Positions 13,148 through 44,450 of a stretch of 64,000 nt of DNA are shown here, piece by piece (positions within the stretch are counted from its first letter, which is position 1; every line of letters begins with the position of its first letter). Made by a program: the position numbers and the translations under genes. The notes under the pieces are model-generated. The model was not told the origin of the DNA, did no database searches, and saw only the letters and a list, made by a program, of their open reading frames with translations. Origin of the DNA: Psammoneis japonica (Eukaryota); NCBI GenBank assembly GCA_008632985.1, contig QPGO01000019.1, forward strand, positions 186,001 to 250,000, read 5' to 3'.

Positions 13148-14029
13148 TTGACATCTGGGTCATGAACAACACAAAGCACAAAAATGAGTTCACAAGAGGC
13201 ACAAGCAGCCACCATTTTGCTTCACCCAAAACACATGCAACCAAACAAACTTGGCTTTGAACAACTCACAAACATGTTCTGTGGCACCAACGGCACAAGA
13301 AACAGACAGTGGAGTCCATGAGAAAATTTCTTGGACATTCAGCAGTCCAAGTCATAAACTGCAAAGCAGAAGAAGCATCCTCACAAATCATGCTCACCAT
13401 TTTACTTTGCCAAACAACAGATGCCACCACACCAATTTGGGTTCAACTCACAGCAATGGCGCTGCCAGACACCTTTGACATGCTGTCACTTGTGACATGC
13501 TTCATGCCAGGAACGCACAATCACCAATGAAAATTCACAATGAGAGAAGCCAATGACAAAATGCCTGATGGCAAACATGAAAAAAAAAAAGAGGGTGCAA
13601 GTCTAAATTGCACATTTGCTCCACAACCTGCCTTGGTGCTGCTGAACTTTGCTCACCATCATAAATTGAGCAGATGTCACAGATTGCATGAAAAGCATCA
13701 AGTTGAGGCATCACTGCTCTGCTTTTGAGGTGCATCTTCCTGAAGTGCTGTTGATGCACCATGCTGTTGTGCAACATTTTGGTGACAATCAAAGCATTTT
13801 TTGCCCAGAAAAAATCTCTCACGTGCAGCACATTGTGACAGGCAGAAGTGCCAGCATGATCCTGACAGAATGCCAATGGCATGAGCAACATGCCAAAGAG
13901 CTCCCTGCAAACTGGTGACAGTGGACAACACATGTGCCAGCAAGAAACAAGTGAGAGAAAATCTCACAAATGGTCTGACCATCATCCATGCACAGTCTGC
14001 CCCACATGCCTCTGCAGGGTGGGTTGACA

Positions 14030-18199: not shown

Positions 18200-19570
18200 T
18201 CTTATGGGCACTTGCGCATTCCTTTGAATTTGGGTGGAGCTCATTTTTGTTGAAGCAAAGAGTGACAAATGCCCAGAGTGATGCCGGCACAGATGACCCC
18301 AGCATGTGCACAGTTTTGCACCGACAGCCCGTGGACTTTCATGCCAACGCCACTCAAAAAATTCAAAAAGAAAGACTGTGAGCACAAAACCATGCAAGAT
18401 GTGGTGGTGACCAAATGATTGTGCCCTGCTGCAAATGGACCCCCATCAGTCCATTGGCTTGATTCCTTTGCATTCTCAAGGACTCAAGATCAACATGTGT
18501 TCATTGGACACCCCAGGGAAGAAAGAATGGCCAGTTTTGTGTGTTCTGGCAAAATCCAACCTGCAGATCCACTCATTTGCCCTGAGCCTGGTGAAAGGTG
18601 ACAATCAAGTTGCAAAGGAGGCAATGAGAGAGAAGTTTCAAAACAGCCACAATGTTTGACATCATGTGCATCCCCACAGTTTGAACAGTGCATTTTTGGG
18701 TGGAGCACCAGCTGACAAGCTTGCAATTTTGTTTTGAATCAAAAAATCAAACACAAAAACACAAGAACAAAGGGTGTGTCAGCCAATGGATTGGATCAGC
18801 TGCAACATGTTTTTGTTGGAATTTTCTTGAGCAAGAACTTTGCAAAACAGCTGCTGGTCACCTGTCGCACATCACAACCTTGACAGGTGCTTTCAGTGTT
18901 CTGCATTTTGACTTGAAGGAGTTCTTTTTGGTTGTGGCAGCAGTGCCAGCACAGCAGCAACAGCAGAGTGGACAAGAGTTGGTGGCGCATTGATGGAGAG
19001 CACAAGACAACTTCTTGTTGGTGAGACATGTGCTGTTGTTCCATGTGAGCAAGAAAAAAAGTGTTGTTGGCTTCTGCTTGACCCAGCTGCAGGAGTGCTG
19101 CTCTCCAAAACTTGCAGCATGGCACAAAAAGAGCAGTGGCTGGCAGCCACCTTGATTTTGTTGTTGTTGTTTTGTTGCACGGGAGATTTGCTGCTGCACA
19201 CAAGAAGTGGTGGATTTTTTGCAGGCAAACCATTGCTTCTTGCTGCTGGGCTGTTGCAGCACCCGCAACATTGTTGCTTTTTTCTTGGGGACATCAAGCT
19301 CCACACTCTTGGTGTGTGTGTGCTGACAACAGAGGCCGGTGATTGTCTTGTTTGGAGAAAGTGCGGGTGCGCTGGCTTGTCGTCTTTGGAGAGAAAGTGC
19401 GCGCGCCAACACGCCGCGCCACACTTTGCTCCTGTTGCAGCAGAGCACTTGTCGTCCAGCTTGTTGAACACAACAAGAAGAACAGACTGCTCTGCAACAT
19501 CAATGTGTCCACATGGCTGCAATTGTTGTTGTTGAAGCAGTGCTGAGAGCGCAACAGTCATCATGGTTGC
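18200..19570. other. TpA-depleted domain, unidentified decayed repeat
   Basis: Essentially no TA; TA-rich sequence resumes abruptly near 19580. Confidence 0.85.
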
Positions 19571-19918
19571 GTCTCTGTTTTTAGTTGAGAATGTTTTCTC
19601 GGAATGTTGAGGAATTTGGAATTCCAAAGAAGAATTCGTAGGTAAAGATATGCTCAGGTAGAATTCTACATACACATATGCAGTTTATAGAAATGGAGAA
19701 GCGAATAAAAAGATATGAATACCGCGCCAAATTGTGGTTGCGTAGAAAATATACGGTGTGCTACGACAGAAGTTGCCTGCGGCAGATGCACCGCGCATGC
19801 ACGACGGCACTCTCGAACTCCAGCACCGGCAACAACAACAACCCACAACAGCGTCCCTGTTGCAACAACAACAAAACAGCGTCTATTACATTACAACAAC
19901 AACCACAACACTACAACC

Positions 19919-25389: not shown

Positions 25390-25990
25390 TATCTCGGGCT
25401 AGAGTTTGATGTGAAAACTAGTAGGATGCTGTAACACATATTACCAATCTCGTATCCTTACACGTTGCTTCACCGTGGTGGCAACTGGCCGCAAAGTTCT
25501 TCCGTCGGGCCCAACTTTGGCTATCTATGTCTCCTGCGCTGGCACCATTGTTACACTCTATCAAGGAGTTACAAGTCAAGGTGAGAGGTAAGGGGATCTC
25601 TTGGACCACGAAACAGAGAGGAAAGTTTTCCGACGCACCGTCCTCTCAACGGAACGGCGTTCACACTGTACTGTATAGCAAGCGCACTCGTCAGCATCGT
25701 CTTCTATGGCATTTCCTACGTTCATAATTACTACTCTGAGTATACCATACACATTGCATGCATGTATTTTGCACCAGTATGGTAGCTACCGGTAGGTAAC
25801 ACGAGGAGTCCGCTTCGCAAAAGACTCATGAAGCACATAATTGCACACGTCAAGATCTTCTAGTAGAGAGTACTACAAACACACATTATACAAGTAGGGC
25901 CCTACGGAAATCTCGAACAACTTTATTTTAAAAGCTAGTACTATAAAACATTTATTCTTCTAAAAAACTCACACTGTACAGCGCCGTACT

Positions 25991-26488
25991 TTACGCAAAA
26001 GCGCCAGTGCTTTGCTCGGCCGCTTCCATGGCTTGTTGCTGCATCACCTTGTGTTCAAATTTGCGAACGGCTCTCTTTTCTCCTGTTCGGCAAATCTTGC
26101 GTGTCAGAGCGGCACCACCCACTCCTCCGAGGATGGCACCGACCGGGCCCAAGGCGAGTCCACCCACGACGGCACCTCCAACCGTCCCCCCGGCGGTACG
26201 ACGACGGCGTTGGCGCTTCATTTGAGCCTTCCTCGGGTGCTTGGGATTGATGATATTGTCTGAAGAAGGACTGTAGGATGTCAGCTCGTTTCTTGGTGAT
26301 ACTGTAATGGCTGTAGGAGCATATTGATTGTAGTAGTAATCATCGTCGGAGTGTGCCGAATGTGTGGATGAAACCTCCGAGTGGTATCCAACCGACGAGG
26401 ATTCTGCTGGAACAGAGTAATTGTTGTAGCCTTGATCATCGCGAGTGGCATAGGCAAGGTCGTAGGGGACGAGAGCATTTGAGGTCAT
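25991..26488 (-). CDS. Hypothetical protein with glycine-zipper segment
   Basis: Intact ORF from MTSNALVPY; GGTVGGAVVGGLALGPVGAILGGVGGA after a basic patch; normal TA/CG content. Confidence 0.7.
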   Translation of the reverse strand: MTSNALVPYDLAYATRDDQGYNNYSVPAESSSVGYHSEVSSTHSAHSDDDYYYNQYAPTAITVSPRNELTSYSPSSDNIINPKHPRKAQMKRQRRRRTAGGTVGGAVVGGLALGPVGAILGGVGGAALTRKICRTGEKRAVRKFEHKVMQQQAMEAAEQSTGAFA

Positions 26489-26936
26489 GGTTGAGAGAGA
26501 GAGGGAGATTGAGTGATGTAAGAAGGAAGTGTCTTGGTCTCTGTTCTTCGTCAACGACGTGAAGTGATGCGAGAAGATTGTGAGCGAGCGAGTTTCAAGT
26601 TCTTTTGCGGTTCTTTGCGAAGACTGCACGGGGACGAAGTCGGAGTCGCGAATCAATTTTCAAACGGTCAAATAAATATGGGTAGTCATACGGTACAGTA
26701 GATGTTGATAACCGCCGTAGATCCTTGACATTTATGTACCAGCGAGCTCCGACCTCGCCAACATATACGTTAAAAGCCGTTATTTCTTAGTCGTGACGGG
26801 AATGCTTTCCCTCACATTTCGCGTGGAATTCTACGTGGAGAGCAACAGATGCTTGAGTCGTGTTGTTGAGTCGTTCTATTCAAAGGAGCAACGGTCGTGT
26901 CCTGCTCGAGTCGTTTGAAGACACGCCGTGTGAGTC

Positions 26937-28100
26937 GTGAGTGTTTGCGAAAAGCCAACCTACGGCACCCGCCCGCCCAGAAGCAAGGATTTACATCCTT
27001 TGCCCCAGAGGAACATCATCATCATCCTGCCTACCGCATCCATCATCGAAACATATTTGGCCTCTTTCTGCTTTGCCTTGGGCACGACTCTTACATCCGA
27101 GGAGATCAAAACAGCGACAGGGACGATGCAGTCATCGTTGTTGATCTTCTCCATGGAAGGATCACAAGCATCAGTCAAGTCATCTTTGGAAGACCTTGAC
27201 GTTTCACGTGTCAACTCAATGGCTGTGAAGAACGCAAAACGTGAATCATTTCGCTGCAGTGGGAATCCGCTGCTCACCAAAAGTGACACACAACAAGTGG
27301 GAAAATCGAATGATCAGGTGGCACGCGAGCTGCACTCCATTGGAGATGAAGCGCAGATCGCATTCTTGGAAACCCCAATGTGGTGGATTGTCGTGCAAAA
27401 GAAAGTGTTGAATCAGCAGCACTTTTTAAGTTTTCGAAATGTTTGTGATGAGTCGATGGGAAGCAGGAAGCAGGGGCGCTGGCAGGCGCATGGCGGAGAA
27501 GTGCTTCGAGTTGTGACAACCGTGCAGGAATTGAAAATTAGACCAAAAGCGTTCCTTCGTCCAAGGACACAAGGAAGTTGCTGGCAATGACGAATCTCTT
27601 TCGAGTGGAGAGCATGTGTGCCCATGCAAAGGCTTGAAGTGCATTGTTTCCTGACCGGGAATGCTCTGCTCATGCCACTGGTGACAGCCGGTCAGGTTTC
27701 TTGGACCACTGCATGCAACATGGGTTTGACGCGTGCTCGCCTCCCACCATGAAAAGTTGCGGCGTTCTGTGCAGTGCATGGCAACACTTGGCTGCTTCCC
27801 ATAAAAGTGGCGCCAAGTGCTCAGAACATGCGTTGTCAATGCAGGACCAACGATTGAACACAAGAATGAATGAGTCAACTGCAGTTCGCGGGGCCTGCTT
27901 TTTGTTCTTCCTTGGACGCAGCCATTGCATCTGATCTGAATTCTCTTTTTTAAGGCCACGAACAGGGCATGCGAACCTGGGACACAGAAAGCAACTGCGA
28001 GCATTTCATGAAATTGGATGATGTTTCTGCACCAGGAGACGAGATGGGCCTTCACATGAAGTGCTGTGAACGGGAAGATGTCAGCAGATTCACTTGTGAT
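26937..28100 (+). pseudogene. Degenerate coding-like sequence, product unknown
   Basis: 217-aa ORF with protein-like N-terminal part, followed by broken frames as TA content collapses after about 27150. Confidence 0.3.
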
Positions 28101-28324
28101 TCTGGGTTGGTGTCTCGTGTCGTTCAATGGGTGTCACAGTCCAAGGACTGAGGACTGCTCGTTAGGATGACCTCGCACCAGAGCGCACAGCACTCTTTAA
28201 TTTCACCTGGTGTCCTCATTGCCTGCTGGCAAAGGAGGCTCAAGACAAGAACTCACGGCCGCACACGAACACTGCGTTACTTTGAATGAAACAAAGGTTG
28301 GGAATTTAGGCTGTTCCGAATCTT

Positions 28325-29450
28325 CTAAGCGGCTTGAGAAAACCAGGATTTCTTTAAAACTTTAAAAACGCTCTCCTTTGATGCAAGAGATCCTGGCATC
28401 ACCGAACGAGCATCCAGCTCTCCATCTGCACAGTTACGCAACGCGGACATTTGACAGTCCTTCAATGGCTCAGAAAGCAAGCTTGCCCACACGCGCTCGG
28501 TGAAATGTCCCTCCTGAATGTTGTCACCTCGCAGCAGACTCTTTGAGATTTTTTCCCAAGTTTCCGGCTTGACTTTTCTCATTTGCTTGGCAGACACAGC
28601 AAAGGTTCCACCACAGCAAACACCAACCAGATCTGTCTTAAACTTCAGCCCAAGTGACGATGCCCAATCGCCTAGATTCTTGTAAGGCGAGACGAACGGA
28701 ACTGCATCCGATGTGACCTTGTCGTGTTTGCCGTTTTGGCTCAAGTGTTCCTTTAGATCAAACTGGACAAGCTTGTCCAGCTCGTGACATGTCGACAGAA
28801 CAAATGAGCGACAAAAAAGAAGTGGCAGCTCTGTCATCTGCATGCCACATGCGAAGTTAGTCATTGAAGCAATCCTTGGCACATCATGCATCGATCTCCA
28901 AGCACCATGTTGATGGACACTGGCGTCGTTTCGATCATCTTTAAGAAACACCACCACCTCCTTTTCCTCATCAGAAGGGGATGTGGTGGCCCGTTCAGAC
29001 AGCCAATGCGCATGGCTTTGATCACATCATCCCTTGTTTGGCAGTCGAAGTGCCGTCGACCCTTCTGGAGCACCAACGACGGGTTGGCCGCACTTGGAAA
29101 GGATGGTGATGTTTTTCATTGGGAAGCCTTGTGTGAAATTGTCCAGCCAGTCCAATGGTTTGAGACAGTGTGACACAACAACAGTGACTTTTTCAAAGTG
29201 ATGAGCATTGCCCCCGACAGCATCCCCTTTCCAGAGGCCTCCACAATCGGTGTCTTGTTCGCATGCCACGCAAACACAGCGGTTCTCGGCTGGTGGCAAA
29301 CAGTTGCCAACAGCAATCTCGTTGACCATGTGGCAGGCCTCAGTGGACGTGCAAGCCAATGAAACCAATGACACAATGAACAAAGGCAATGTCGCGCTCC
29401 TCTCTGTGCTGCAGATCACTCTCACGTTGCACATTTTGGAGAGAGGTGAA
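28325..29450 (-). pseudogene. Mutated copy of a host gene (DUF3431-like / glycosyltransferase-related family)
   Basis: VVVSHCLKPLDWL, ILSKCG, RLPNKG(R)CDQSHAHWL, VVFLKD, VCCGGTFAV, RGDNIQEGHFTERVWASLL; frameshift near 29030; Cys/His at positions where Tyr is expected. Confidence 0.65.
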
Positions 29451-29743
29451 GCTGATTTCTTGTTGCATGATGCAGATGGGAAAGCTTGTTTGCAACCTGC
29501 TCCAGAAAGAGTGGGATGTGTGGGGTGGTTTGAACGGGTGAGTCGAAAGCGGCGAGGGGCATGGCTGGCACGATGGGAAAGATTCATCTTGAGATCGCAC
29601 AACAATGGCCACGGTGCGGGTGAGAAAAAGTGAGGTGGTGAGTCATGCACAAAGGTTTTGCGGTGCCAGCAATGGCTGTCCTGGAATGCCAATTTTAGCA
29701 GCCTTAGACAAATCAACATGTTTGTCCGTTGCGAGCATTGGCG

Positions 29744-30061
29744 CTACGAATTGCTGAACAATTGCGCGATTCACGTGCCCGAAGGTCGAATGTCGTTGCC
29801 CGAAGCAACATTTTCCCTTCGCGCAGATGTCCATTCCACATGGCACATGGCATTGAAAATCTCATTGTAGTCGCATGAGTTGTCTAGGGAATTTCATCAA
29901 ATGACCTCGTGGCACTGTGCTGCGTGATCTACACAAATCGGACATTCTCGAATGCTGGTGCATTTTCTGCGGTTTCTGCGTGCGCGAAGCTCGAATTTCG
30001 TGCCCGAAGCAACAATCATCGTTCGGGCACGTGAATTGCGCAATTGTTCAGCAATTCGCAG
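29744..30061. mobile_element. MITE-like element with 40-bp terminal inverted repeats
   Basis: 29744-29783 matches the reverse complement of 30022-30061 at 38/40; internal repeats of GCCCGAAGCAACA. Confidence 0.8.
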
Positions 30062-30682
30062 TAAAGAAAATGGATGTCACACAGTCAAGGGTGGTCAGTT
30101 GCCACTTTTTTTAGCTCGAATTCGGCCGAATGGCTCGTGTTTTGCGCGATTTTTCCTGAATTTCACCGTGCTTCACCGTGGTGAAAACAACAAGCCACAA
30201 GTCTGTGACGGAGGTGGTCCGTCTGCCAACTCTCATTTATTTTATGTTTGTCATGTGTCAAAGATTGCACATGCATGAAAAGTTGGTAGACGGCAAACTG
30301 CGTTTTTGAGAAATGTCGATGATTGTCATCATCGTCATGCTTCGATCGTGGTGTTGATGGTTCTCGTTTTCGTGCGCGATCGGGTGTGACTGTGAACAAT
30401 TCTTGTGTTCAAAAATGAACACTGTGAAAAACCTTGTTCAAATGCAATGGCAATTTTGGGATGAACACGGGGATGACCCCCCTCAATGCAGTCATGCGAA
30501 TGAGGGGCAGTTGACATGCGCATTTCCGCAGGCAGTGCGTGCGAATTTTGAACTCATTCTGGCGCCGTGTTCCGTTGTGATGGTGGGTTTTTGTTGTCTT
30601 CTAGGCATGGCAGCAGTGTGCTCTGTGGACTGTCGTTTGGCATGCGGTCTGGGCAGGTGGTGGTCGATTGTGTCCGGGTCTT

Positions 30683-31147
30683 TTAGTGTTTGCAGAGGGA
30701 CAGACCTGCGCCATCTTCCCACTGGGGTCGCCTGGAGCTGATCTGAGAGGCGGGAACACGGGATCCCCTGAGGCAACGGTGGGTTGCCCTGACTGTGGTG
30801 ACACTCATCCTCGCGTTGACACAGCCGCATGCTTCAGAATGTGGCTTTTGCCACTTGTCCGAGAGTTTTGACGCCATCTTGCGGAGCATCGCCTTGGCTT
30901 CTTTGCCGAAAAGTCCGTCGCATGATGCAACGAATGGAGTGAAGTGACGGCGTTGTTCCAGACAAGGCTGGAGGTGCTCACGCTTCTTTTCATGTTCGTG
31001 ACTTGCTGGGACTTCTTCTGGTGTTTTGGACAGGCATGACTTCGCGTCCGTGTCGGGAGTGTGAACATCCGTCACCATGTCTGTCCTTCCATCCCAAAAT
31101 CTCATGCCGAGAAGGTCTCCACGATTGCCATCCTTGGACTTGAACAC
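30683..31147 (-). mobile_element. 5'-truncated non-LTR retrotransposon; C-terminal restriction-like endonuclease domain (CRE-like)
   Basis: RGDLL..FW..TD...DV...DTDAKSC, EKKREH..CLEQRRHFTPFV.S.DG..GKEA, KWQKPHSEACGCVNARMS..VRATHRCLRGSR. Confidence 0.8.
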
Positions 31148-34100
31148 AATTTGTTAAAAGTCTATGATGTGCATGACAATCAATCCAGTGCTGTGATGAT
31201 CTTCAAGGGTTTCAGGTTCCTGCTTGGCAGAACTTCACTGAGTTTTTCTTGGTTGAGTTTTGCTCATCTTTTCGACATTTGGAATGCTGTCACCACACAT
31301 TAGATTCCATCAAAAAAAGATGCTGGACAGCAATGAAGAAATTTGGAAAGGATGGAGGGCAGAGCCGGGTGAAAACAAGAAATGATGAGAGACACACACA
31401 GCAGCATCGTGTGTTCGCAGTGTGCACCCAAGCCACCATGTTCACACAACTCTCCATGCAGGCACCTGCACGGCAATCTCAAGCATGCTGCACAGGCCCT
31501 TTGTTGCCAGTGCAAAGGCTCTTGCAGATCAAACATTGACTGTGCACCCCCCAGGGTCACTTCGTGCTCACAGGCAAAGCATGCGCACAGTTGCTGCTCT
31601 CAGCGAGGGTGGAGGGGGGGCCATTGTTTTGCTCAGCCAGAGACAACAAGCAAGTCAAGATTGCATTGGACCCACTGTTGCAAATCAAACCCATGCTGTG
31701 TGGCAGTTGCACCTCACCCAACCCTTGTGAAAGTGTGTGAGAGCCAGACGTGCGTGTGAGAGGAGGGCTTTGTTGACAGCTCCCCCCACCCCTGCACCCA
31801 GCCAAAAGGAGAGAGAAAAGCTGAAGAAACCAATTGGAATTTCATGCATGCATGCAGCAAAAACAGCGTGCTTCAACATTGTGTGATTTTGCTGGAAAGC
31901 CACTGCTGCTGGTTGCTCAAATCATGTCACACTGCAAAGACATGACAAGAAATGCCACAGAGCAAAATTGTGTCATCAGAAAAGGGAAAGTGACTCCTTT
32001 GTGTGACATGCTCCTGTGCTCTCCTGCTGGTGCTCAGAAAGAAACTGCATTCTGTGATCCATGTCACATCTCCTGTTGACACCAGCAAAAGAAACTCAGC
32101 TGCTGTTCACGCTGCCAGGACAGGTGCTTCAATCGATTTTGTGAGTCATGTCATGTCCACACCACAGTTGCTTGTGCTTTTGTCTCTCAAGCTGATGGAG
32201 CCACAGAGAGTCAAGGCATTGGTGAGTGGCGTGCTTGCTTTCTCATTCTTGTTCAACGCATTGTGGAAAAATGTTGCCAGTGTGCCACATTGCCGCTCCA
32301 CGCTGCAGTTGTTGTTGGCAGGCAGGAAAAACCATGACACATCAGTTGGAGACCTCCTGACATTTTTGGCTCTGTCTCACAATGTCCAGTTGAAGTCAAG
32401 CAACACACACCATCAACATGAATGCCATGCACTCTCACAAACATTTGTTTGACTTGTGACACTCGCTCATGCTTTGAACTGTGAAGCTGCAGCCCCACAC
32501 CTCTCATGGTGCTCCTGTTTTCTGTCACCAGTGCTGCCTTGGCAGCAGCAAGAAGTCACTCTGTGGCTGCTTGAGGTCTGCCCAGCTGGGAACACACTCT
32601 TTGTGAAAACAAGGAAAGCAATGGTCAACAGGAGCTTGTCAAACTGGAACTTGAGACTGGTGCTGTTGCCATGCTCACTCAACTGGGCAATCATGAGATC
32701 ATGGCATCACACAGCTGCAGCAAGAGGAGATGATTTCTTGGACATTTTTGCAGCACCCAAGGCCAAGCTCAAACCTGTCAATCTCTGCAAACATCTTGCC
32801 AGAAATGCCAGTGCTGTCTGTGAAGAGCATTGACAAGCTTCACAAGCATGAAGACAAAGTGTGACAGACATGGCCCTGTTGGCTCCTCCCCAGACAAGGG
32901 GGGCTCAAGACAACAGATGATGAGAGCAATGACCGTCATCTTTTGTGCTGCTCTGTCTGGACCCACATGCTGCCAAACATCATTGTCAGGATGGTGTTTG
33001 CTGCTTGATGTGTCATTGGAGCCAACAAGTGGCTCTGCACAAAAACCCCTCTGCTGACTCCAACAGCAGTGTCAGACAGCTGTCAAGAGGGTGCCCGGCA
33101 ACTGAGTGGACCTGCACATGTGCACCTGCTTTCCAGTTTGTCAGACAACAGGAGCTGAGTTGTTCGAATTTTGCTCAGTGCCTGTCATTGCAGCTTTGTG
33201 CTTTTAACCTTTGGTGCTCATTTTGGGTGGCATCACCATGGTGCTGGTGGTGCTTGGATTTTGCAAGGCAGACACAGCTGGTGGGCACACATTTGCATCA
33301 GAGGCTCCCTTTGAGGAGCATGACTTGTTCACACCAAAGATGACACAGCTGTGTCATGTGAGGACATGTGCTCTCCAATGAAAATGACAATTGTTTTTTG
33401 CAAATCACAGTCACATTGGAAGACATGCAGACACGCAGATGTGTGCACAAAACTTGCTTGCAAAAATGCTGCTGTAAAAATGTTGCCTCCTGTGGGGCAG
33501 CATCATCACATGCAAACTTGTGCTGCATTTCATCATTTCATTTGTGGGTGATTTTTGCCACTTGAGGTCTCTTGTTTTTGCTCAACCAGGAGGCTGCAGC
33601 AGGGTTGTCAGCTGGCTCAGCAGAGCAGCCAGAGGCCACAGCTTCCTTGTTGCTGCATTTTTTTCATGCAATCAAGTTGAGTTGTCACAGACTTTTCAAG
33701 AGTGTTTCAATGGATTCGGAGACATGCTGGCAGAAGGGATCAGGGCATTGCTTGCTTTTTTGTTTTGCAGCATGTCTTGAGATGAGCAGTGCATGTGCGC
33801 TTTGTCTTTGGTGGCGATGGTGTGTTTTGTGGCACAGCTCAAGCTTTTGCTTTTAAAATGAGGGGCTCTGTCACCAGACTTGTTGGCCAGGGGGCACCAC
33901 CACAGCTTTGGGGGGGGGCAGATGAAGTGTGGCAGTGCATGTGACAACTGACAGCTGGCACACTCTGCATGAACACAACACCAGCTGGTGGCAGGGTTGA
34001 TGGCATTGGCAGTTGGCAGGGAAAGTCCTCTGAGTGAGTCATGTCTCCTGGTTGCAAAAGAAGCTGCTGGGGGCAGGCAAATGTCAAAACAGTCTTCTCT

Positions 34101-34897
34101 TGCATGTCAAACCAGCTTGGGGCAGGGCAAAAAAGTCCCCCAAAGCAGCTCTGTGAACAGCCAGGTTGTCAACCAACAAAGCACCCAGAGGTGACCCCAG
34201 CTGCTTGCTGATGCATGTGACAAAAGAAGCAAAATCTTTGAAGTGAGGTGGGTGCCAAAGCAGCTTGTGCGCGCATGGCCTTCAAGAACGTTCTGCCTGC
34301 GAGAGAGGGTGCAAATGACAATGTCAGCATTCTTGTTGCTTCACATTTCAATCTGGCCCCATCCACCCCATTTTGAGCTTCTCATGCAAGTGTCCAAGGC
34401 AGGTGCTGTGATGACAGGCTGAAGAACCATGTTCTCCATTTTTCTCACCGCAGGCAACACGCCACTTGCCTCTCCGTGCGCCTTGAGATTGTGCAACATG
34501 CCAAGGATGGGGTGGTGGCTGGGGAAAGGGCCTGGGTGCACATGGCTGGCATGTTTGCAGAGGCTCAAGTTTTCTGGTTTGATTTTGCTGGCGTGGGCAG
34601 GGACATGCGGCGAACATCATTTTATTTGTGCATGTCCCTGGGCATGGGTGGTCTTGTGTGCTGATAAGACTCGTGAGTCGTGAGTTGCTTCCTTCGGAGA
34701 CACCATCATCTGATGGCAGGGCAATAGAGGTGACATGATTCTGACATCAGCGCACGCCACGTCACACACGAATCACGGATACACCACGATTAGCGCGGGC
34801 TTCTCATTGACACCGCCGTCGTCGATGCACCACCTTTCTTCCTTCTTCATGTCTCACAATCTTCGCTAATCGACATATTCTGTTCTCTTTCGTTACC

Positions 34898-35473
34898 ATG
34901 TTGCGAACAACTTCTTTTCGTTTTATCCGTTCCAGTCGATCAATGGTTGCAGCATCGTCCTCGTGCTGTGCACCGCTTGCACCCAATACTACCACTTCAA
35001 AACGCCACGTCCACTTGCCTCCATTGCATCGACGTTTGTTTTTGGATCGTCCCAAGAAATTGTTGCACGACAATTTCTCATCGGAATCCTACACCGGAGG
35101 AGCTTCGGAAGTGGGAGAAGACGACATTTTCTACCATGACGAGGGGCCTGTACGAATGCAGCAAGTCATGTCGGCTGGAGCTCATCATTACTCTTCCTAT
35201 CAACAGCAACACGAACAAGAATACAACACGATGCGGTTTGATGAAGATTATGACGAGTACAATTTGCACATGACCATCCACCAAACCCGTGCAGGTCGAG
35301 TGTCAAGTCATGATGACCTTGAAATGGATATCCAGCACGGCGATGTATTGAGTGTGCGTGAATCACGGCACGTCTGGGATGAAACTCATGAAGGGGCGTA
35401 CGCGGGTGAACGTAGTGAGGATGTCGTGGAGAGTGATGATGAGAGTGTTCCCGAAACTGTGCAAGATATTTAA
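34898..35473 (+). CDS. Hypothetical protein with Arg/Ser-rich (mitochondrial-type) leader and acidic tail
   Basis: Intact 191-aa ORF in a normal-composition island; MLRTTSFRFIRSSRS N-terminus. Confidence 0.6.
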   Translation: MLRTTSFRFIRSSRSMVAASSSCCAPLAPNTTTSKRHVHLPPLHRRLFLDRPKKLLHDNFSSESYTGGASEVGEDDIFYHDEGPVRMQQVMSAGAHHYSSYQQQHEQEYNTMRFDEDYDEYNLHMTIHQTRAGRVSSHDDLEMDIQHGDVLSVRESRHVWDETHEGAYAGERSEDVVESDDESVPETVQDI

Positions 35474-35914
35474 GAATGCCATACAGATGCATGACTTGCA
35501 TTTTCCATTTCATTAAAAGAGATTGTAACAATACAAAATAGATGCTCCATAGGATACTAATGTTGTGTAGTGCGGTACTTGTATGCGAGTTGTCCCCTTT
35601 CATCAACAACTACACATGCCGGTAGTTCTCATGTCATCTGAATTTCCCAGTGTACGAGTCACCGCAGTTTCTTTTCAACGTATTTGACGGCACAATATAG
35701 ACATCTCACTGTCGAATGAATTAGCTTGTTCCGAGGGCTGATCAGTTCGGTTTCCAAGCTGCAGTTCTGCAGTTCCACACCAAAAAAAAACACAGCAACT
35801 CCTGTTTTGCGTCCATCACTCTAGACTGGTTCATTCCCTTCCATCTTGCCCCTTTTTCTTGTCTGTTGGCAAGGTCGTGTTGTTGATGTCACAGAATGTG
35901 CAGAAAGAGAACAA

Positions 35915-36261
35915 TGTGACAATATTCATATTTGTTTGTTTTTACAACAACATCGGACCTCCACGATTCAAGTCAGAGATCCAAGATTCGAACCCCGTGT
36001 GCGATGCTCAGTCTCGAATCCCGCGGAAGCCGAGTCACGAATGCGATGTTTGTTCCTAGCTTCGCGCTTGTTTAACTTCGCGTTTCCTTTAGATGGCAGC
36101 TGCATCTGCTCATAAAAACTGCTCATAATCTTTCTAACGTACTGATTATCACCTCTCAACTTTTGGTACAATAAAGTTACTGATTGATTGTTGTATCGCA
36201 ATTACAGCTTTTAATCACTGAAAGTGCAGACGAATCCCAGAATTCCGGCTACTTTCCCACA
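35915..36261 (+). repeat. 5' LTR
   Basis: TGTGACAATATTC...TTTCCCACA; 346/347 identical to the 3' copy by manual alignment. Confidence 0.97.
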
Positions 36262-36280
36262 CGCTTCCTCTGCGCAATCT
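36262..36280 (+). other. Putative non-canonical primer-binding site
   Basis: CGCTTCCTCTGCGC directly after the LTR; reverse complement GCGCAGAGGAAGCG resembles the eukaryotic tRNAi-Met D-arm; no TGG. Confidence 0.6.
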
Positions 36281-36335
36281 ACAAGTTAAGTCAATCGATC
36301 TTAAGCTCTCGATTCTACTTTACTTTGCTGTTACT

Positions 36336-37835
36336 ATGGTCACGCAGACACGAACCGCGGCTGCTCTAGCTGCCTCTGTTGCAGCTCCCGCTGCTGCACC
36401 CGCTGCAGCTCCTACCACTGCTGCTGCTCCGGCAACAGCACCTGCTCCTGCAGCCGCTCCAGTTGCTCCTGTACCTCCCCCAGTCGTTCCTCCCGGTGTA
36501 CCTCCAGGAGGAGGTGGCGGAGGAGGTGGAGGTGGAGGTGGAGTCCCACCAGGTGGAGTCCCGCCAGGTGGACCACCATTGGCACCTGTGCCACCACTAC
36601 CGATCTTCGCGTTGACTCCAGGTCAACACCGTCCCAACATCTTCATCGACTACGGCACATCGCAAGGCCTCAAGCTTTGGAACGCCGCTACTGCACCGCT
36701 GCCGCACGAGTTCAACGGCGATTCAGAAGGTCTCAAACGGTTTTGTGAGACACTCAGTCAACGAGCTGCCGAGGCAGGATGGAAAACAGGGGCAGGAGAC
36801 ATACTTACCATTCCCGACGCGAATGGAACTCCACGAGATCTCATCTCCGAGTACGGACTACTCACTCTACAGGATGTTAGAACCCACGCGAACACCTTCG
36901 CGAATCTACCTACGCGACAAGCACAGAACAATGTGCAGATGGCCGAGGCGATCTCTCAATCCCTTACGGAGGAAGCAAGAGACAAGATATTGGCTGAGAT
37001 AGATTCCTATACGATCAATGGAAATCAAATCGGCACACTATTCTTCAAGCTACTTACGCAAAAGGCCATCGTTGACACACGCTCTACCACCAACTACTTC
37101 CGCGAGAACTTGTCAAGCCTGGATACGTACATGGCGGCTGTTAACTCGGACATCGAAGAGTTCAACAAGTACGCCAAGCTCAACGTTGACGGACTCCAAG
37201 CTAGAGGAGAGCAGTGCGACGACCTTATCATGAATCTATTCAAAGGATACGCCGCAGCTGCTGACGAAGTATTCGTCAAGTACATCATGTTACACAAGGA
37301 CAGGTACGACGATGGTGAGGAATTCACGCCGACGCAAATCATGACGTTGGCACTGAACAAATATACTAACCTCAAGCGCGAGAAGAAGTGGGGAGCACTA
37401 TCACCGGCTGAAGAGCAAATCGTCGCGCTTACAGCCAAGGTAGACTCCATCAAGGATCAGAACCTTCAGCTGTCTAAAGCTTTGAAGGCCAAGGCTGGTT
37501 CAACCAAGGAAAGAAGCACACGGTCAAGGAAGACCAAGACCACTCCACGTCAGAGACAGAAAGCGGACGAAGCCTGGAAGAAAGTCCCGCCTAAGGAGGA
37601 CGCTCCTAAGAAGACAGTGAACGGTCATCAGTACTATCACAAGCGCGTCAACAATCGCGACTATCACTGGTGCCCATATCACACTGCTTGGGTCATACAC
37701 TTACCTGATGATCCGGGCAACCAAGGCTGTAGACTCCGCAAGCAACAGTCTGCTCCATCCACAGACACGTCGGACAAGAAAGTCTCCTTCGCAAGTGCTA
37801 TCTCTACCATCCTAAATGAAGTGGATCAAGAGTGA
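36336..37835 (+). CDS. gag: Gag of the copia element
   Basis: 499-aa ORF after the LTR; Ala/Pro/Gly-rich N-terminus, basic C-terminus with YHWCPYHTAWVIH knuckle-like motif; ends in TGA in frame with pol. Confidence 0.9.
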   Translation: MVTQTRTAAALAASVAAPAAAPAAAPTTAAAPATAPAPAAAPVAPVPPPVVPPGVPPGGGGGGGGGGGGVPPGGVPPGGPPLAPVPPLPIFALTPGQHRPNIFIDYGTSQGLKLWNAATAPLPHEFNGDSEGLKRFCETLSQRAAEAGWKTGAGDILTIPDANGTPRDLISEYGLLTLQDVRTHANTFANLPTRQAQNNVQMAEAISQSLTEEARDKILAEIDSYTINGNQIGTLFFKLLTQKAIVDTRSTTNYFRENLSSLDTYMAAVNSDIEEFNKYAKLNVDGLQARGEQCDDLIMNLFKGYAAAADEVFVKYIMLHKDRYDDGEEFTPTQIMTLALNKYTNLKREKKWGALSPAEEQIVALTAKVDSIKDQNLQLSKALKAKAGSTKERSTRSRKTKTTPRQRQKADEAWKKVPPKEDAPKKTVNGHQYYHKRVNNRDYHWCPYHTAWVIHLPDDPGNQGCRLRKQQSAPSTDTSDKKVSFASAISTILNEVDQE

Positions 37836-40800
37836 CTGCTCTACAGGTTCACTCTGACACTGCTGCTGTCCTTGCAGATAGCCGTCACTGTGTCAGTGCT
37901 CCTGATAGCGGTCGCTGGCGTCATGAAATGTGCAGCACCGATCTGGATCATACTACTATTCATGATGCTATCCCTTCCTTCAGAAAAGTGTAAGCGCCTG
38001 TCACATGCCGTAATGACGCTGGGTGAGTGGGTCATCTCACATATCCTGGCTGAACTAGGCACAAGACGAGTTAAGACTTACCAGCGACGGCCAACGACGA
38101 GGTACTGCGCACGGTATCATACGTCGACGAGGCCAGGTCACCGCTCCAGAGTGGCCACCAAGAAGGCTCACTATGTCATTACGCGATACAAGACGGTTAG
38201 AGCGTACAACTCAACCACACCATACCGTCCCGAGCGAACGGAGCCCACTTACGATTCGGACTCATTCGTAATCGGTGTCGACTCGCATTCTTCCTGCACC
38301 ATGTCCAACGACGAGGCACACTTCATTGGTCCTCTTCGCAAATCCAACAAAGTGGTACTCGGTGTCAAGGGCTACTTACGTGCTAAGGGAGAAGGAACAG
38401 TGCAGTGGGCAATTGAGGACGACATGGGACGAGTGCACAGCATCAAAATTCGAGACGCGCTACTCGTACCGGACTTACCTCACTGTCTTCTCTGCCCGCA
38501 GCAATGGAGCCAACAAGCTAATGACCACACGCCAGAGCCTCACGGAACCGTATCTTGGACTAGGGACGACGGACTATTACTCATGTGGGATCAACGCAAG
38601 TATCATCGCCTGATTCCATGGTCCGCCAACTCTAACGTCGCCAAGATGCGCTCCGCACCCGGTTCCAACAAATACCGGACCTTTGCAGCCGCTGTCGAAG
38701 AACAAACCGATATCGAAACTATCGAGCACGTGGCCTATCAAGCTCACATCATACCACCAGACGACGAGAGTATTGCGAATGATGACGAGGCTGCAATTGA
38801 TACAGACGTCTTCAGAAGTCCATCCGAGACACGTCCTTCCGAGACGCAAGACGCACGCAACACTACTGATGAGGATGCTCCTGTCTTATTTGAGCAAACA
38901 GACGGAGCAAGTCGTTCAGACTCAGACGAGGAAAACCTAAGGGATTTCACGACACCGGAGGTACAGCAGGACTTACCGGAACCCATCAACATCATACCAA
39001 ATGATGACGCCCTTGCTGCCACAGATGACCAGGGTGAACTATTGCGTTGGCATTACCGCCTGGGCCACATGTCATTCAAAATGATAAAGCTATTGGCCGC
39101 CCTAGGCATTCTACCGAAACGCCTTACAAAGGTACACAACCCAAAATGTGCCGGCTGCCTATACGGTGCCATGACGAAACGACCATGGCGCTCCAAGTCC
39201 AAGCGGAACCGACGAATCCACTTGGCAACTTCGCCTGGAGAAGCCGTATCCGTCGACCAGCTCGAGAGTCCTACTCCTGGATTGATCCCACAGCTCAAAG
39301 GGAGACCTACGAAGCAAAGGTATCGAGCAGCGACAATTTTTGTTGATCATTTCAGCGGATTGGGATACATATATTTGCAGAAAGGACTTACCTCAGCCGA
39401 GACGCTCGAAGCCAAGCACGCTTTCGAGGCATTCGCACGCCGGATGCACGTCCGTATTCAACACTACCACGCCGACAATGGAAGATTTGCTGATAATGCT
39501 TTCTTACAAGACGTCAAGAAGCAACAGCAAACAATATCCTATTGTGGGGTCAACGCCCACTTCCAAAACGGCATCGCGGAGAAAAGAATAAGGGACCTCC
39601 AAGAGCAATCTCAGAAGCAACTCCTGCATGCAAAAGTGAGATGGCCAACGGCTATTGAGTTGAACTTATGGCCAAGCGCTCTCAGGAGCTCAAACGAGAT
39701 CAAGAATCACTTACCGAATCACGAGGATGGCTCTTCTCCGCTGGAACGTTTCTCGTCCGTCAAGGTCCAGCCTAATCTCAAACAACACCATACCTTCGGC
39801 TGCCCCGTCTACGCCTTGCACAACCGGTTGCAGGGAGGAGGTAGGCTGCCTAAGTGGGACCCAAGGGCAAGGTTAGGAATCAATTTGGGACCATCAACAA
39901 GACACGCAGGTTCAGTTACCTTGGTTTTGAATTTGCAGACCGGACTCGTATCGCCGCAATTTCACGTACAATTTGACGACTTCTTTGAGACTGTTCGTCC
40001 ATCTGCTGGGAATCCTCCTACATTCTCACAATGGCAAGGCATTACAGGTTTCAGACAACTCAAGACAAGGAGTACTTTCAACATCTTTGGGAAATCAAGT
40101 GACGTACCGGTTGAGGGATCAGTCCCTACCACAACGGAACCACCTGAGCCGAATTCGGATATCCCGTCTCAGCTGCTGCATCCTACTGATACGTCTACCA
40201 CTGATGACTCATTTGATAATGCCCAACCGGATGATGAAATGCTATACACGCCTCCAGATGATTCTGACGCACCATCTGAGCCACAGCGCACTATGGGTCA
40301 ACCCAGTACCAGTAGGTCCGGCCGACAACGACGCCCGACCGAAAGAATGCGCGAGAGCCAACTACCACGGGCTCAAGGCATTGTCTCCTACAATGCAGAG
40401 GCAGAGGCATATTATGATGCGATGCACGAGGATGATTACAAACTGCAGGACGACATGGACTCACCTATCTCTTTTCTGGCGAGCTCGGACCCCGACACCA
40501 TGTACTTTGATCAGGCCATGCGTGAACCTGACAGAGACGAATTTATCAAGGCCTGTGTTAAGGAAGTCAATGATCATATTGAAAGGAATCATTGGATACT
40601 CATTCCAAGAGAGGACGTACCTGACGATGTTGATGTTCTCCCTTCGGTATGGTCTATGAAGCGCAAAAGAGATATTAAGACCCAAGCCGTCTACAAATGG
40701 AAGTCCCGACTTAATGTGCACGGTGGAAAGCAAGAATATGCTGTCAACTACTTCCAGACCTACTCTGCCGTGGTCTTCTGGTTCACTATCCGGCTCCTAC

Positions 40801-42094
40801 TGATCATTGCCATTCTTAAGAAGTGGCATACACGCCAAGTCGACTTCGTTCTGGCGTATCCGCATGCCGATATCGAATATGATATGTACATGGAGTTACC
40901 TGCAGGAATTGAAACAAAATATGGCAATGGTAAGACTCATGTTCTGAAGTTGCTCAAGAACTTATATGGACAAAAGCAAGCAGGGAGAGTATGGCAAGAA
41001 CACTTACGTGATGGATTGTTAAGGATTGGTTTCGTACAATCGGCAGTTGATGAGTGCCTGTATTTTCGTGGCAATGTCATTTTCATTCATTATGTCGATG
41101 ACGGTATCTTTGCATCCCCTGACAAGTCTGCTATTGACAAGGCGATACAGGATATCAGAGATGAGAATTTTGATATTGATGATCAAGGCACTCTGGACGA
41201 CTATCTCGGTGTCAACGTCGAGACACTACCAGACGGCAGAATGAAACTTACCCAACCTCACCTTATCAATCAGATACTGGAGATGGCCAATATTCCAAAG
41301 AGACTACCAGATAAGCCTACTCCTGCTCCTTCCTCCAAGATCCTCCACAGGCATATGAGTGAGCCTGCTTTCCAAGGGAGCTTTCATTACCGATCCATCA
41401 TCGGCAAGCTCAATTTTCTGGAGAAGAGCACTCGACCGGATATCGCTTACGCGGTGCACCAAGTCGCACGCTTTTCTTCCGATCCCAAGGTTTCTCACGG
41501 TGAAGCCGTACTATGGCTCTGTAAGTACCTAAGGTCAACCAGAACTGAAGGTATTATACTACAGCCCTCAACGGACAAGTCCCTTGAAGTTCACGCCGAC
41601 GCGGACTTTGTGGGCAATTGGAATAAGCTGACTGCACCCGATGACGTCGGCACTTCCAAATCTCGAACTGGGTTTGTCATCACCTATGCAGGATGTCCGA
41701 TTGTCTGGACGTCCAAGCTACAGACTCAGATCGCGCTCAGCACTACTGAAGCTGAATTTATCGCTCTTTCGGAAAGTCTTCGAAGCGCCATCCCAATTAT
41801 GAACCTCATTAAAGAATTTATGGATCACGGTCATAATGTCCCTTCCAAGACACCAGTCGTACATTGTAAGGCTTTTGAAGACAATTCTGGAGCATTGGAG
41901 ATCGCGAGATTGCCTAGATGCGTCCTCGGACAAAACACTTCAACCTCACTCTCCACCACTTTAAAGACCATGTTCGCAAAGGTCTCATATCAATCCTACC
42001 AATTGATACGGCGGATCAGATTGCAGACATTTTCACCAAACCTCTACCACAAAATCTCTTCGTTAAACACAGGAAATCGCTCCTTAAGTGGTAA
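37836..42094 (+). CDS. pol: Pol polyprotein (protease, integrase, RT, RNase H)
   Basis: IGVDSH protease; WHYRLGH..CAGC; VSVDQL / HADNG / NGIAE; WKSRLNVHGG; LYGQKQAG; YVDD; STTEAEF; 1-nt deletion near 41916, after which the shifted frame reads MRPRTKHF...ADIFTKPL to TAA at 42092-42094. Confidence 0.95.
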
Positions 42095-42137
42095 GACGTT
42101 TTCGAGTCATCATTCCACCCGACATTGTTGAAGGGAG

Positions 42138-42484
42138 TGTGACAATATTCATATTTGTTTGTTTTTACAACAACATCGGACCTCCACGATTCAAGTCAGA
42201 GATCCAAGATTCGAACCCCGTGTGCGATGCTCAGTCTCGAATCCCGCGGAAGCCGAGTCACGAATGCGATGTTTGTTCCTAGCTTCGCGCTTGTTTAACT
42301 TCGCGTTTCCTTTAGATGGCAGCTGCATCTGCTCATAAAAACTGCTCATAATCTTTCTAACGTACTGATTATCACCTCTCAACTTTTGGTACAATAAAGT
42401 TACTGATTGATTGTTGTATCGCAATTACAGCTTTTAATCACTGAAAGTGCAGACGAATCCCAGAATTCCGGCCACTTTCCCACA
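42138..42484 (+). repeat. 3' LTR
   Basis: Copy of 35915-36261 with one difference (C at 42473 versus T at 36250). Confidence 0.97.
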
Positions 42485-44450
42485 AACAACTCAACAAAGG
42501 GCATGATTGCTGACAGGCACACTTCAGCCGCAGAGTCTCAAAAATTGGGCACGCCAGGAGCTGCCTGCTCTGCTGCATGTTGCAGACAATGTGATTTTTG
42601 CAAAGTCCAGTGATTTTGGCCAACTGAGCACTTTTGTAAAAAAGTCAAACATGGCAGCATTGCAGTGGTGGCAAGTGCTGCCAGCTCCCACTGTTCAATC
42701 TCTTGTGCCACATTGCTCTCCACCTGTTGACATGTGCTGGTCCATTTTCAAGCAATGTGCTGGCCATTGTGACATGCCCCAGCTCCAGCTGGCACCACAA
42801 CCTCTCAGACTGCTCTGCTGCCACTCAACAAAAATTTTGTTGCTGTTGAGCACAAGATTTCCACATGTCAAAATGAGCTCACTGGGGAGTGGCTGCCTGT
42901 GGCAAAGTGTCACACAACACTGGCTGCTCACAAAAGCAGTGGTTCTCGACACATCAAAGCCATTTTTGTGCACTTTTGTTTGTGCCACAGTTGCAGCCTC
43001 TTGCCCATCATGGAGCAAGGCCATGCAGTGGAAAATGCAAGAAGGGGAGCAGCCACATGCTGCCTGATGAAAAAAAAAGAAATCAGAAATGATTGTCCTC
43101 AGGTGTGCAGTGCGTGCAGCTGTCAGAGTTTGCAGGTGCTGCAAACTGACAACCATGCACTGAAGGTGCAGCACATGCAAAAAAGGGCTGCTGAGGAGCA
43201 AACAGTGGACAGGCAGTGGATTCTTGCCTGCGCACAGTCTGCTGCACAGTCTGCAAGAAAAATGAACTCCACATTCCTGAGGCTTCTTTCAGACATCATG
43301 GAATTTTCTGATGAGCTGTGCACATGTTCCCATGTGCAGATTCAAAAAGTGAGAAAACACCCCAAAAAGGTTTGTGAGAGCATGCCAAACAAATTGAGGC
43401 AGCAGCTCACTTTTTTCCGGCATGGGATTTTTGCACAAAACTTCTGGTCCTGGCGCTGAGCACATTGACAACTTCATTGTTGTTGTTTCAATTTCTGGAT
43501 CACAAAATTGCCTCTTCTTTTTCTGTTGGCAGCTTCGCTGGTTTGGCGCAGAGCCCACAAACAGAATTCTGCAAGCCCAATGGCAACCAGCATCCCACCC
43601 AGGCTTCAGCAGGCTGGACTGCATTGTGTGCACACCTCTCTGACTTGTTGTCTGGTGGCTCCTTCCTTGCATGTGCTGCAGCCAAGAGCTGCCTTTCATT
43701 CTTCACACTGTGCACCAGGATGGCCACCAGCAGCTGCACAGAGCTGCGCTGAACAAAAAAACATGCCATGGCCAACTGGCCCAACCTGGCCAACTTCACA
43801 CCATGAGCTTCTGTGTGCTCTGTGTCAACAATGTGCTGAAAAAATCTCTCAAGCACTGCACTTTTGAGCTGGTGGTGGCTTCCCATTTTTCTCTTTTCTC
43901 CTGTCCCACTCCTTTCTCTCTGTGTTGTGTGGCAGCAACAGCGTCACAGAAGCAGGGCTTCATTCTCTCTTCTGATGTTGCTTTTTGGCAAAAGGGCCAT
44001 GTGCTGATCATGTGCTGCAAGATGAGACAAACCCATGAGCAAAAGACAGAAGGCTCTGGTGATTTGCAGCGCCCGCAGCAGGAGAAACACAAACAGCAGC
44101 TCTGTTTGAGCTCACAGATCTGTGACAAATGGCAGGAAGTTTCTCTGCAGGCCACCCATTTCTGCCACTGGCATCATGCAGAATCCATGGCAACCTTGAG
44201 TTTCTGTGCTGCTTGTGCCAGCTGCAGCTGGGGCTGTTTCTTTCAAGAGGACGAGAGTTTTCTCTTGCACGTTGCTTGCTGCAAGCATTTTTTGTTGTTT
44301 GGTTTGACTGTCGTGTTTTTCACTTTTCCCTCTTACTTCTTGCCATGTCCACTGCATCGCCGCTTTTCCACTTCCTTGTGATGTCTCTTTCTCTCTCGCT
44401 GTTTTTTTGACATGTGTGTGCCATTTGTTGCCTTTTCAGATTTTACTGCA
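42485..44450. other. TpA/CpG-depleted domain interrupted by the young copia (continues at about 35740-35914)
   Basis: Almost no TA; similar composition on both sides of the TSD. Confidence 0.88.

Follow-up and report, generated by a model that had tools for sequence, protein, structure and literature searches.

The 64,000-nt window of Psammoneis japonica genomic DNA analysed here (contig QPGO01000019.1, positions 186,001 to 250,000 of the forward strand, GenBank assembly GCA_008632985.1; coordinates below are those of the window) contains sharply bounded domains in which the dinucleotide TpA has been turned almost completely into TpG and CpA, and within most of these domains CpG has been lost in the same way. 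A first-pass annotation of the sequence had singled out positions 27150-31150, the flagged region, as DNA in which the loss of TA is uncoupled from the loss of CG. Our best explanation, to which we give a probability of roughly 70%, is TpA-targeted hypermutation together with a separate and slower decay of CpG in the same silent domains. Positions 27093-34620 would then be one silent domain of about 7.5 kb and the flagged region its less decayed end, an interpretation to which the same estimate applies jointly.

Dinucleotide counts were compared with expectations from 1000 mononucleotide shuffles to give observed/expected ratios (o/e), and Poisson P values were calculated against the rates in the window's own ordinary DNA (42.3 TA and 55.2 CG per kb). 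Over the whole window the ratios are 0.39 for TA, 0.69 for CG, 1.45 for TG and 1.40 for CA. The sequence splits sharply into three states: ordinary DNA (TA o/e ~0.6, CG o/e ~1.0), TA-poor DNA that retains CG, and DNA poor in both. Excluding the tandem array at 5.1-7.2 kb, 206 bins of 300 nt divide into 116 ordinary and 90 affected ones; of the latter, 34 are poor in TA only and 56 in both, while not a single bin is poor in CG only. The affected segments, delimited by dinucleotide o/e and without strand, are the following.

1-3900 and 27093-31150, TA-poor/CG-retaining segments
9300-16160 (the largest), 18205-19580, 31170-34620, 42490-44440, 52700-54260, 56910-59160 and 62660-64000, TA-poor/CG-poor patches

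Pooled, the TA-poor/CG-poor patches have o/e values of 0.03 for TA, 0.18 for CG and 1.86 for both TG and CA. At 14 patch edges, the TA density steps from 27-55 per kb to 0-11 per kb at the change point. No mutual similarity among the TA-poor patches was found by self-BLAST with the 12-nt-periodic array masked, and Rfam gave no match in the window. Two of the patches, over lengths of 1.9 and 3.1 kb, recur in contigs from a public DNA run (k-mer depth 35-55) with 0 and 2 letters different; to the extent that contig comparison can tell, the TA-poor pattern is thus no product of the assembly.

The flagged region (4001 nt) holds 31 TA (o/e 0.12; 248 ± 12 in the shuffles, z = -18) and 198 CG (o/e 0.79; z = -4.4 against the shuffles), with TG and CA at o/e 1.48 and 1.56. 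Its CG count is only marginally below the ordinary-DNA rate (P = 0.06), and the CG-rich strings quoted in the first-pass annotation are present. The same annotation read no TA from about 28950 to 29690, and consecutive TA indeed stand at 28942 and 29696, leaving a gap of 754 nt (Poisson P = 2e-14 for a TA-free 28950-29690). It also took both dinucleotides to be largely gone from 31200 to about 34600. There we count 4 TA (o/e 0.02) and 34 CG (o/e 0.16; P = 2e-43 against the ordinary-DNA rate) in 31200-34600, with TG at o/e 1.81 and CA at 1.98, so that CG in the flagged region is far from being as depleted as in this neighbour (0.79 vs 0.16). The loss of TA runs from ~27093 to ~34620 and CG falls only at ~31150-31270. 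In the successive parts 27093-29740, 29741-31142 (a repeat block) and the DNA beyond, TA o/e is 0.12, 0.13 and 0.02 and CG o/e is 0.69, 1.00 and 0.16, respectively.

The counts balance. Per kb, ordinary DNA has 42.3 TA, 55.2 CG and 147.3 TG plus CA; TA-poor/CG-retaining DNA has 7.4, 42.3 and 196.4 (47.8 lost and 49.1 gained), and TA-poor/CG-poor DNA has 2.0, 11.0 and 232.0 (84.5 lost and 84.7 gained). The loss of TA plus CG thus equals the gain of TG plus CA within 1.3 per kb. TG and CA are also equally frequent, with 254 and 253 in 27093-29740, 790 and 773 in TA-poor/CG-retaining DNA, and 2121 and 2216 in TA-poor/CG-poor DNA. This balance, together with the equal rise of TG and CA, means that TA and CG were turned into TG and CA by transitions on both strands.

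The direction of change can be read from recognisable sequences within the 27093-34620 domain, which is composed as follows.

27093-28327, no strand, TA-poor, CG-retaining DNA of unrecognised origin that forms the left edge of the TA-poor domain (TA spacing, o/e)
28328-29434, minus strand, DUF3431-like gene relic (homologs; Pfam DUF3431 just below cutoff; frame open to 29743, Met at 29434)
29027-29029, minus strand, in-frame TGA in this relic, at a column that is Arg in 93% of homologs
29741-31142, no strand, high-copy repeat block, TA-poor but CG-normal (summed depth 2150-8450 vs ~55 in the flanks)
29744-30061, no strand, 318-nt unit resembling a miniature inverted-repeat transposable element, with 40-nt inverted repeats (arms 29744-29783 and 30022-30061, 95% complementary)
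30088-31142, no strand, repeat unit that bears an open reading frame (ORF), delimited by contig ends
30686-31142, minus strand, C-terminal ORF relic of an unclassified mobile element (283 homologs, 49-68% identity)
31170-34620, no strand, TA-poor/CG-poor patch adjoining the flagged region (o/e)

The DUF3431-like relic has 40 homologs, the best with an E-value of 9e-102 at 50% identity, and all four that carry an organism name are from diatoms (Amphora coffeaeformis, two Skeletonema species and a Bacillariaceae metagenome-assembled genome), which along with long ORFs free of introns and the presence of Copia gives the genome a diatom-like character. It has no second copy in the window and is single copy by depth too. 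At 133 columns with at least 60% consensus among at least 25 homologs, Tyr is kept at only one of nine conserved positions, compared with 93 of 124 non-Tyr columns kept (Fisher P = 2e-4). In place of the eight lost Tyr are four His (CAY), two Cys (TGY), one Trp and one Phe; six of the eight changes are TAY to CAY or TGY. The in-frame TGA would fit a CGA-to-TGA change, that is CG to TG, given the residue expected at this column.

The ORF of the repeat unit tells the same story, having Cys, His, His and Cys at its four Tyr-majority columns. A tally of 120 of its 283 homologs gives His or Cys as 16 of 18 and 8 of 11 non-Tyr residues at the two best-conserved Tyr columns. In seven of the 120, Cys/His fills at least three of these four columns, and in most it fills none, a bimodal spread as hypermutation would give. 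In comparison with other genomic copies of the repeat in the DNA run, all four of the best-supported differences (29837, 30252, 30268 and 30300) have CA or TG in the window and TA in the other copies. Duplicates inside the TA-poor/CG-poor patches carry CA in one copy and TG in the other at the same dinucleotide (12 of 59 mismatched positions in one case, 4 of 15 in the other), as would follow if each copy had resolved an ancestral TA or CG on its own after the duplication. The annotation's view that the loss of TA is not simply a by-product of CpG deamination is therefore borne out: the direction from TA to TG or CA, as given by gene relics and other copies, needs A-to-G or T-to-C changes, which deamination of C cannot give, and the loss of TA constitutes a separate process.

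Relatives of the repeat outside this genome have more TA. The ORF 30686-31142 has 370 related stretches in metagenome contigs, and across 80 related loci used for comparison TA o/e is 0.34-1.21, with none down to 0.13, which indicates that the TA depletion belongs to this genome and not to the repeat family. A majority-nucleotide comparison of the ORF with these loci is noisy, with only three TA defined, all three of which are changed in the window. The TA-poor signature occurs in 2 of 1012 metagenome windows of 600 nt, both in the same locus (L024). In that locus, positions 1501-2400 (900 nt), just downstream of the repeat ORF, have 6 TA, 33 CG and raised TG/CA, a hint that the TA-poor, CG-retaining state also exists in an environmental genome. 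The homologs P0001, P0034, P0066, P0080 and others are public metagenome proteins of the repeat family (window 30686-31153, minus strand).

The two losses share domains but not extent. Since no bin shows CG loss outside TA-poor DNA, TA loss must be the faster or the earlier of the two. They are not proportional within the window, as a TA o/e of 0.12-0.13 accompanies a CG o/e of 1.00, 0.69 or 0.52 in three segments. Maximum-likelihood change points of TA and CG lie 5-590 nt apart at the 14 patch edges; of the CG edges, nine lie inside the TA edge, four outside and one level with it, which is not a significant bias. The nesting of CG loss and the closeness of the edges suggest that both losses are aimed at the same silent domains. 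The proposal that TA erasure is faster than, or independent of, CpG deamination can accordingly be kept in its first half, with TA loss running ahead (0 of 206 bins CG-poor only), and independence is too strong a word for a CG loss that is nested in TA-poor DNA.

Within TA-poor DNA, relics were recognised only where CG is retained, namely an RVT_2 match in 1786-2910 and the DUF3431-like gene relic, and 27093-29740, which comprises this relic and its flank, has lost only ~30% of its CG. This fits a TA loss that saturates early and a CG loss that comes later, and to that extent supports the idea of the first-pass annotation that the two layers could serve as a relative clock. A simple clock is confounded by the repeat block 29741-31142, which is TA-poor (o/e 0.13), has full CG (o/e 1.00) and arrived recently, with a TA loss of which part is shared with, or polymorphic among, its copies. 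The block is a recent insertion at this site. A contig of depth 30 runs from 29740 straight to the right flank (the joint was checked) and skips the block, so a second version of the locus, either the other haplotype or a duplicate, exists without it. Contig breaks also mark the block, with 16 contigs ending at 31142 and seven beginning at 30088. In the first 32 aligned flank bases, the second version differs from the window at five positions, including one TA/CA and one TG/CA, and the arms of the 318-nt unit have two mismatches, one TA/TG and one CA/CG. The repeat ORF matched no Pfam family. About one third of the flagged sequence belongs to the block, so that some of the abundant CG there stems from a recent CG-rich insertion and not from slower decay in place.

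The remaining parts of the domain are single copy. This holds for 27093-28327 (k-mer depth 47-75), where the last ordinary TA at 27092 is followed by a gap of 335 nt without TA; the ORF 27429-28133 (minus strand) in this part had no phmmer match among 1.84 billion representatives and no Pfam family. It also holds for 31170-34620; positions 32808-35914 are matched by a contig of 3133 nt that differs in 2 letters. In run X2, for which the kind of library is not on record, the summed depth is 517-3083 over 25463-26764, 206-216 over 34577-35878 and ~2-14 over other ordinary genes; the far higher depth over the first two, the genes that flank the TA-poor domain, makes X2 behave like an expression library. 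Positions 26765-28066 and 31322-34576 are uncovered in this run, from which no silence can be concluded.

The bases next to the lost TA follow a preference. In TA-poor/CG-retaining DNA, 5 RTAY tetramers (R, purine; Y, pyrimidine; i.e. ATAT, GTAC and ATAC/GTAT) are left of an expected 108.8, and in TA-poor/CG-poor DNA 0 of an expected 255.5. The corresponding figures are 16 vs 23.2 and 8 vs 54.5 for CTAA/TTAG, and 8 vs 13.9 and 10 vs 32.6 for TTAA. By our estimate from these counts, the ten classes are roughly fitted by a simple model in which the rate at which A is hit on each strand would be set by its 3' base, in the order TAY > TAG > TAA. TA being palindromic, a preference for TAY equals a preference for RTA on the other strand, and deamination of A gives the same pattern as modification of T. 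Surviving CG follow another rule, with GCGC kept (35 vs 44.4 expected) and WCGW (W, A or T) lost (TCGA 6 vs 85.4). A runs test for strand-wise clustering of TG and CA separates the TA-poor/CG-poor patches (z = 0.0 to -3.4) in no clear way from ordinary DNA (z = +1.9 to -2.6).

Two Copia elements bear on which sequences are hit.

1-3900, no strand, old Copia relic in the second TA-poor, CG-retaining segment (TA o/e 0.12, CG o/e 0.52)
35915-42484, plus strand, young Copia retrotransposon, used as internal control (long terminal repeats, intact ORFs)

The old relic is recognised by RVT_2 (E = 7e-8 in 1786-2910, plus strand) and is 23% identical to the young Copia polyprotein, which is too distant for a codon-level comparison. 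The young element, which seems intact, has long terminal repeats (LTRs) of 347 nt that agree at 346 positions, with CA vs TA as the one difference, and intact ORFs of 537 and 1431 aa with gag_pre-integrs, SH3_retrovirus and RVT_2; per kb, its TA o/e is 0.62-0.80 and its CG o/e 0.88-1.12. A TA-poor/CG-poor patch starts at its 3' LTR, the element having inserted directly against the patch. As to targets, a Copia relic, high-copy repeats and the single-copy relic of a gene with diatom homologs are affected, the TA-poor/CG-poor patches are unrecognisable in origin, and the young Copia is spared.

Under the explanation we favour, the first process would be a TpA-targeted hypermutation of TA to TG or CA, by A-to-G change on either strand, that acts on DNA in place, in sharply bounded domains, and proceeds nearly to saturation. 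The second would be a decay of CpG to TpG or CpA, confined to those domains and lagging behind. As has been proposed for Bigelowiella natans, the agent of the first may be a DNA adenine deaminase of the TadA/ADAT2 kind; it would be guided to its targets by silent chromatin, and the CG decay, by analogy with diatom methylomes, would be deamination of 5-methylcytosine (5mC). Beyond this, and held at a little under even odds, is the idea that diatoms in general, or this alga at the least, have a defence resembling fungal repeat-induced point mutation (RIP) with reversed chemistry, in which a chromatin-guided adenine deaminase with the preferred site 5'-TAY-3' acts on silenced DNA before CpG methylation decay, is still active and can extend over host genes or be directed at them. 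Its end state would be TA-free DNA in which TG/CA is almost the sole pyrimidine-purine step. That it may still be active is suggested by the two locus versions and the repeat copies, which differ at exactly these sites.

Several observations weigh against hypermutation followed by CpG decay, or limit how far it can be taken. The baseline of the mass balance assumes that the patches were once like the window's ordinary DNA, and their origin is unrecognised: among 116 ORFs of at least 85 aa from TA-poor/CG-poor patches, none reaches a Pfam cutoff, and five weak matches (E = 6e-4 to 6e-3) are all below the curated cutoffs. The repeat block, TA-poor with full CG, implies that some of its TA loss was carried along the repeat lineage. 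A single-copy relic of a host-type gene sits badly with a simple rule of foreign DNA, and the essentially untouched young Copia means that being a transposon is not enough to be targeted. A-to-G change by adenine deamination is not separable from T-to-C change by thymine modification. Lastly, the DNA run that confirms the patches may share its sample with the assembly.

A single promiscuous deaminase that hits A in TpA and C in CpG would make both losses the work of one system. It would account for the absence of CG loss outside TA-poor DNA (0 of 206 bins), for TA and CG edges that are only ~5-600 nt apart at the 14 edges, and for the common end point in TG and CA; a preprint on the chlorarachniophyte Bigelowiella natans (Mettrop et al., bioRxiv 10.64898/2026.01.13.699255) also cites, in its text, ADAT2 enzymes for which editing of A as well as C in DNA has been reported. 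We nevertheless consider it unlikely, as the ratio of TA to CG loss is not constant (CG o/e 1.00, 0.69 and 0.52 at TA o/e 0.12-0.13), surviving CG have a context rule of their own (GCGC kept, WCGW lost), the spectrum given in that preprint is nearly pure A-to-G/T-to-C with GC-to-AT changes at ~0 in hypermutable regions, and the CG methylation described for diatom transposable element (TE) islands would suffice for the CG decay. Less probable still is editing of repeat RNA from A to I by an ADAR-like enzyme that prefers U before A, fixed by reverse transcription and reinsertion. The Discussion of the B. natans preprint refers to such a 5' U preference for ADAR, copies of 30088-31142 share the end at 31142 and vary at the 5' end like truncated retroposons, and the TA-poor state of the repeat is partly common to other copies. 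RNA editing would leave a strand asymmetry, whereas TG and CA are about equal and Tyr-to-His (four in the gene relic) and Tyr-to-Cys (two) changes both occur. One unbroken TA-poor domain moreover covers the single-copy gene relic, unrecognised DNA and repeats, the patch duplicates diverged in place (CA vs TG), and the B. natans mutations, as the preprint describes them, arise in single-copy integrated DNA.

That the patches are TA-poor by native composition, as foreign (e.g. viral) DNA or through selection against TA, seems about as remote as RNA editing. It agrees with their sharp boundaries and unrecognisable content, and viral inserts are the targets reported for B. natans in the preprint. 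Here, however, conserved Tyr are missing from a gene that has homologs in diatoms and is interrupted by an in-frame stop, so that selection cannot be maintaining it; other repeat copies have TA where the window has CA or TG, losses and gains balance, and the repeat's relatives elsewhere have ordinary TA. A base-calling or sequencing artefact at modified bases, writing TG or CA for TA and CG, is hardly credible to us. The patches could be heavily modified DNA, and the library type of the possibly same-sample confirming run is not on record, but contigs at k-mer depth 35-55 agree with the patches over 1.9 and 3.1 kb in all but 0-2 letters, 7 of 120 public homologs from other data sets likewise have Cys/His in at least three of the four Tyr columns, and an artefact would not reduce RTAY to zero while sparing TTAA.

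Some other features of the window were noted. A tandem duplication at 8293-8864 (~284 nt, 84% identical) encodes a Cys/Lys-rich motif; the DNA around it is intermediate in composition (TA o/e 0.16-0.44, CG o/e ~0.6), and of its 44 mismatches, 27 are transitions and 12 interconvert TA, CG, TG and CA. The GC-rich (0.68) tandem array at 5395-7168 has a 12-nt sub-periodicity with higher-order units of 36, 60 and 96 nt, and both its TA o/e and CG o/e are above 1; it lies within a long open frame of 832 aa on the plus strand (5322-7817), and its predicted product is a repeat protein rich in Pro, Thr, Ala and Ser. For the 876-aa UCH ORF of the window a homolog search gave no match, and a protein atlas yielded only clusters of bacterial trypsin-like proteins. 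In the largest TA-poor/CG-poor patch, an 83-nt inverted repeat at 12920-13150 (78% complementary, 65 nt apart) and a nearby direct repeat (12666-12751 and 13279-13365) may be the remains of mobile-element ends.

If these readings are right, they have several uses. TA o/e plotted against CA+TG o/e is a simple index for affected domains, and CpG decay as a second, slower layer makes the relative dating of silent DNA testable; should the RIP-like defence prove true, the TA and CG indices would form a two-stage age scale for such DNA. For annotation, Cys/His-rich, Tyr-free 'orphan' ORFs would be explained as mutated relics, and database 'hypothetical proteins' of this composition may often be relics of TpA hypermutation. 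The signature points to a putative natural TpA-specific DNA adenine deaminase, of interest for base editing; the enzyme, under the same defence reading, would be a natural adenine editor that works in a double-strand context.

Known systems resemble this one in part. APOBEC3 and ADAR, which the B. natans preprint also discusses, are deaminases that hypermutate mobile or viral nucleic acids, such as retroelements in animals, with a preferred neighbour base; they act on replication intermediates or RNA and leave strand-asymmetric spectra, whereas in the window resident chromosomal DNA is affected equally on both strands. In fungal RIP, as here, dinucleotide-specific transitions destroy repeats and can reach nearby or duplicated genes, with bounded aberrant domains and a diagnostic dinucleotide index. 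The chemistry is opposite: RIP changes CpA to TpA and so enriches TA (PMC2621366), while the window has TA o/e of 0.02-0.13 and CA/TG o/e of 1.4-2.0. There is also no evidence here of duplication as the trigger, the gene relic being single copy in the window and by depth. Diatom TE islands are CG-methylated (PMC9998398), and share with the window the form of isolated islands over repeats, in a genome that is unaffected elsewhere, in which CG goes to TG or CA. Decay of CpG of the 5mC type explains the CG layer only and cannot remove TA; CG depletion with a matching TG/CA gain is hardly under way in the flagged region (o/e 0.79, not significantly below ordinary DNA, P = 0.06) and present in 31200-34600 (0.16).

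The closest parallel is in B. natans. A full-text literature search returned nothing comparable for diatoms and one directly relevant work, the preprint of Mettrop et al. (bioRxiv 10.64898/2026.01.13.699255), a work of 2026 and the one earlier report of a targeted A-to-G hypermutator of chromosomal DNA. In the mutation-accumulation lines described there, two integrated viral regions took 231 of the 302 nuclear single-nucleotide mutations; 230 of them were A-to-G or T-to-C, and all GC-biased ones were on TpA according to the authors, at rates ~1000-fold over background. The preprint further lists 124 TpA-poor, CpA+TpG-rich clusters in a genome with 85 Mb callable and proposes an ADAT2-like adenine deaminase as the agent, as a hypothesis only; its main text makes no mention of CpG, diatoms, stramenopiles or flanking context. 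With its thresholds (Rho TpA no higher than 0.43, with Rho CpA+TpG no lower than 1.52, in at least three 1-kb windows in a row), 25 of the 64 kb-windows here pass and form three clusters. As far as the preprint's account goes, the two systems have in common the change of TpA to TpG/CpA on both strands, bounded regions, and TpA depletion with CpA+TpG enrichment. The same signature in this genome means that the mechanism may be widespread in the groups of stramenopiles, alveolates and Rhizaria (SAR) and a major shaper of silent DNA in ecologically dominant algae. The lineages are not the same, the named relatives in the present case being diatoms. Relative to the figures of the preprint, the window is far nearer saturation (TA o/e 0.02-0.13 vs a Rho of 0.45 in the viral region) and much more densely affected (three clusters in 64 kb vs 124 in a genome with 85 Mb callable). 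The targets that can be recognised in it comprise a Copia relic, repeats and the relic of a host-type gene, where those of B. natans are viruses, and the process is read here from resident sequence, whereas in B. natans it was observed as de novo mutations in the lines.

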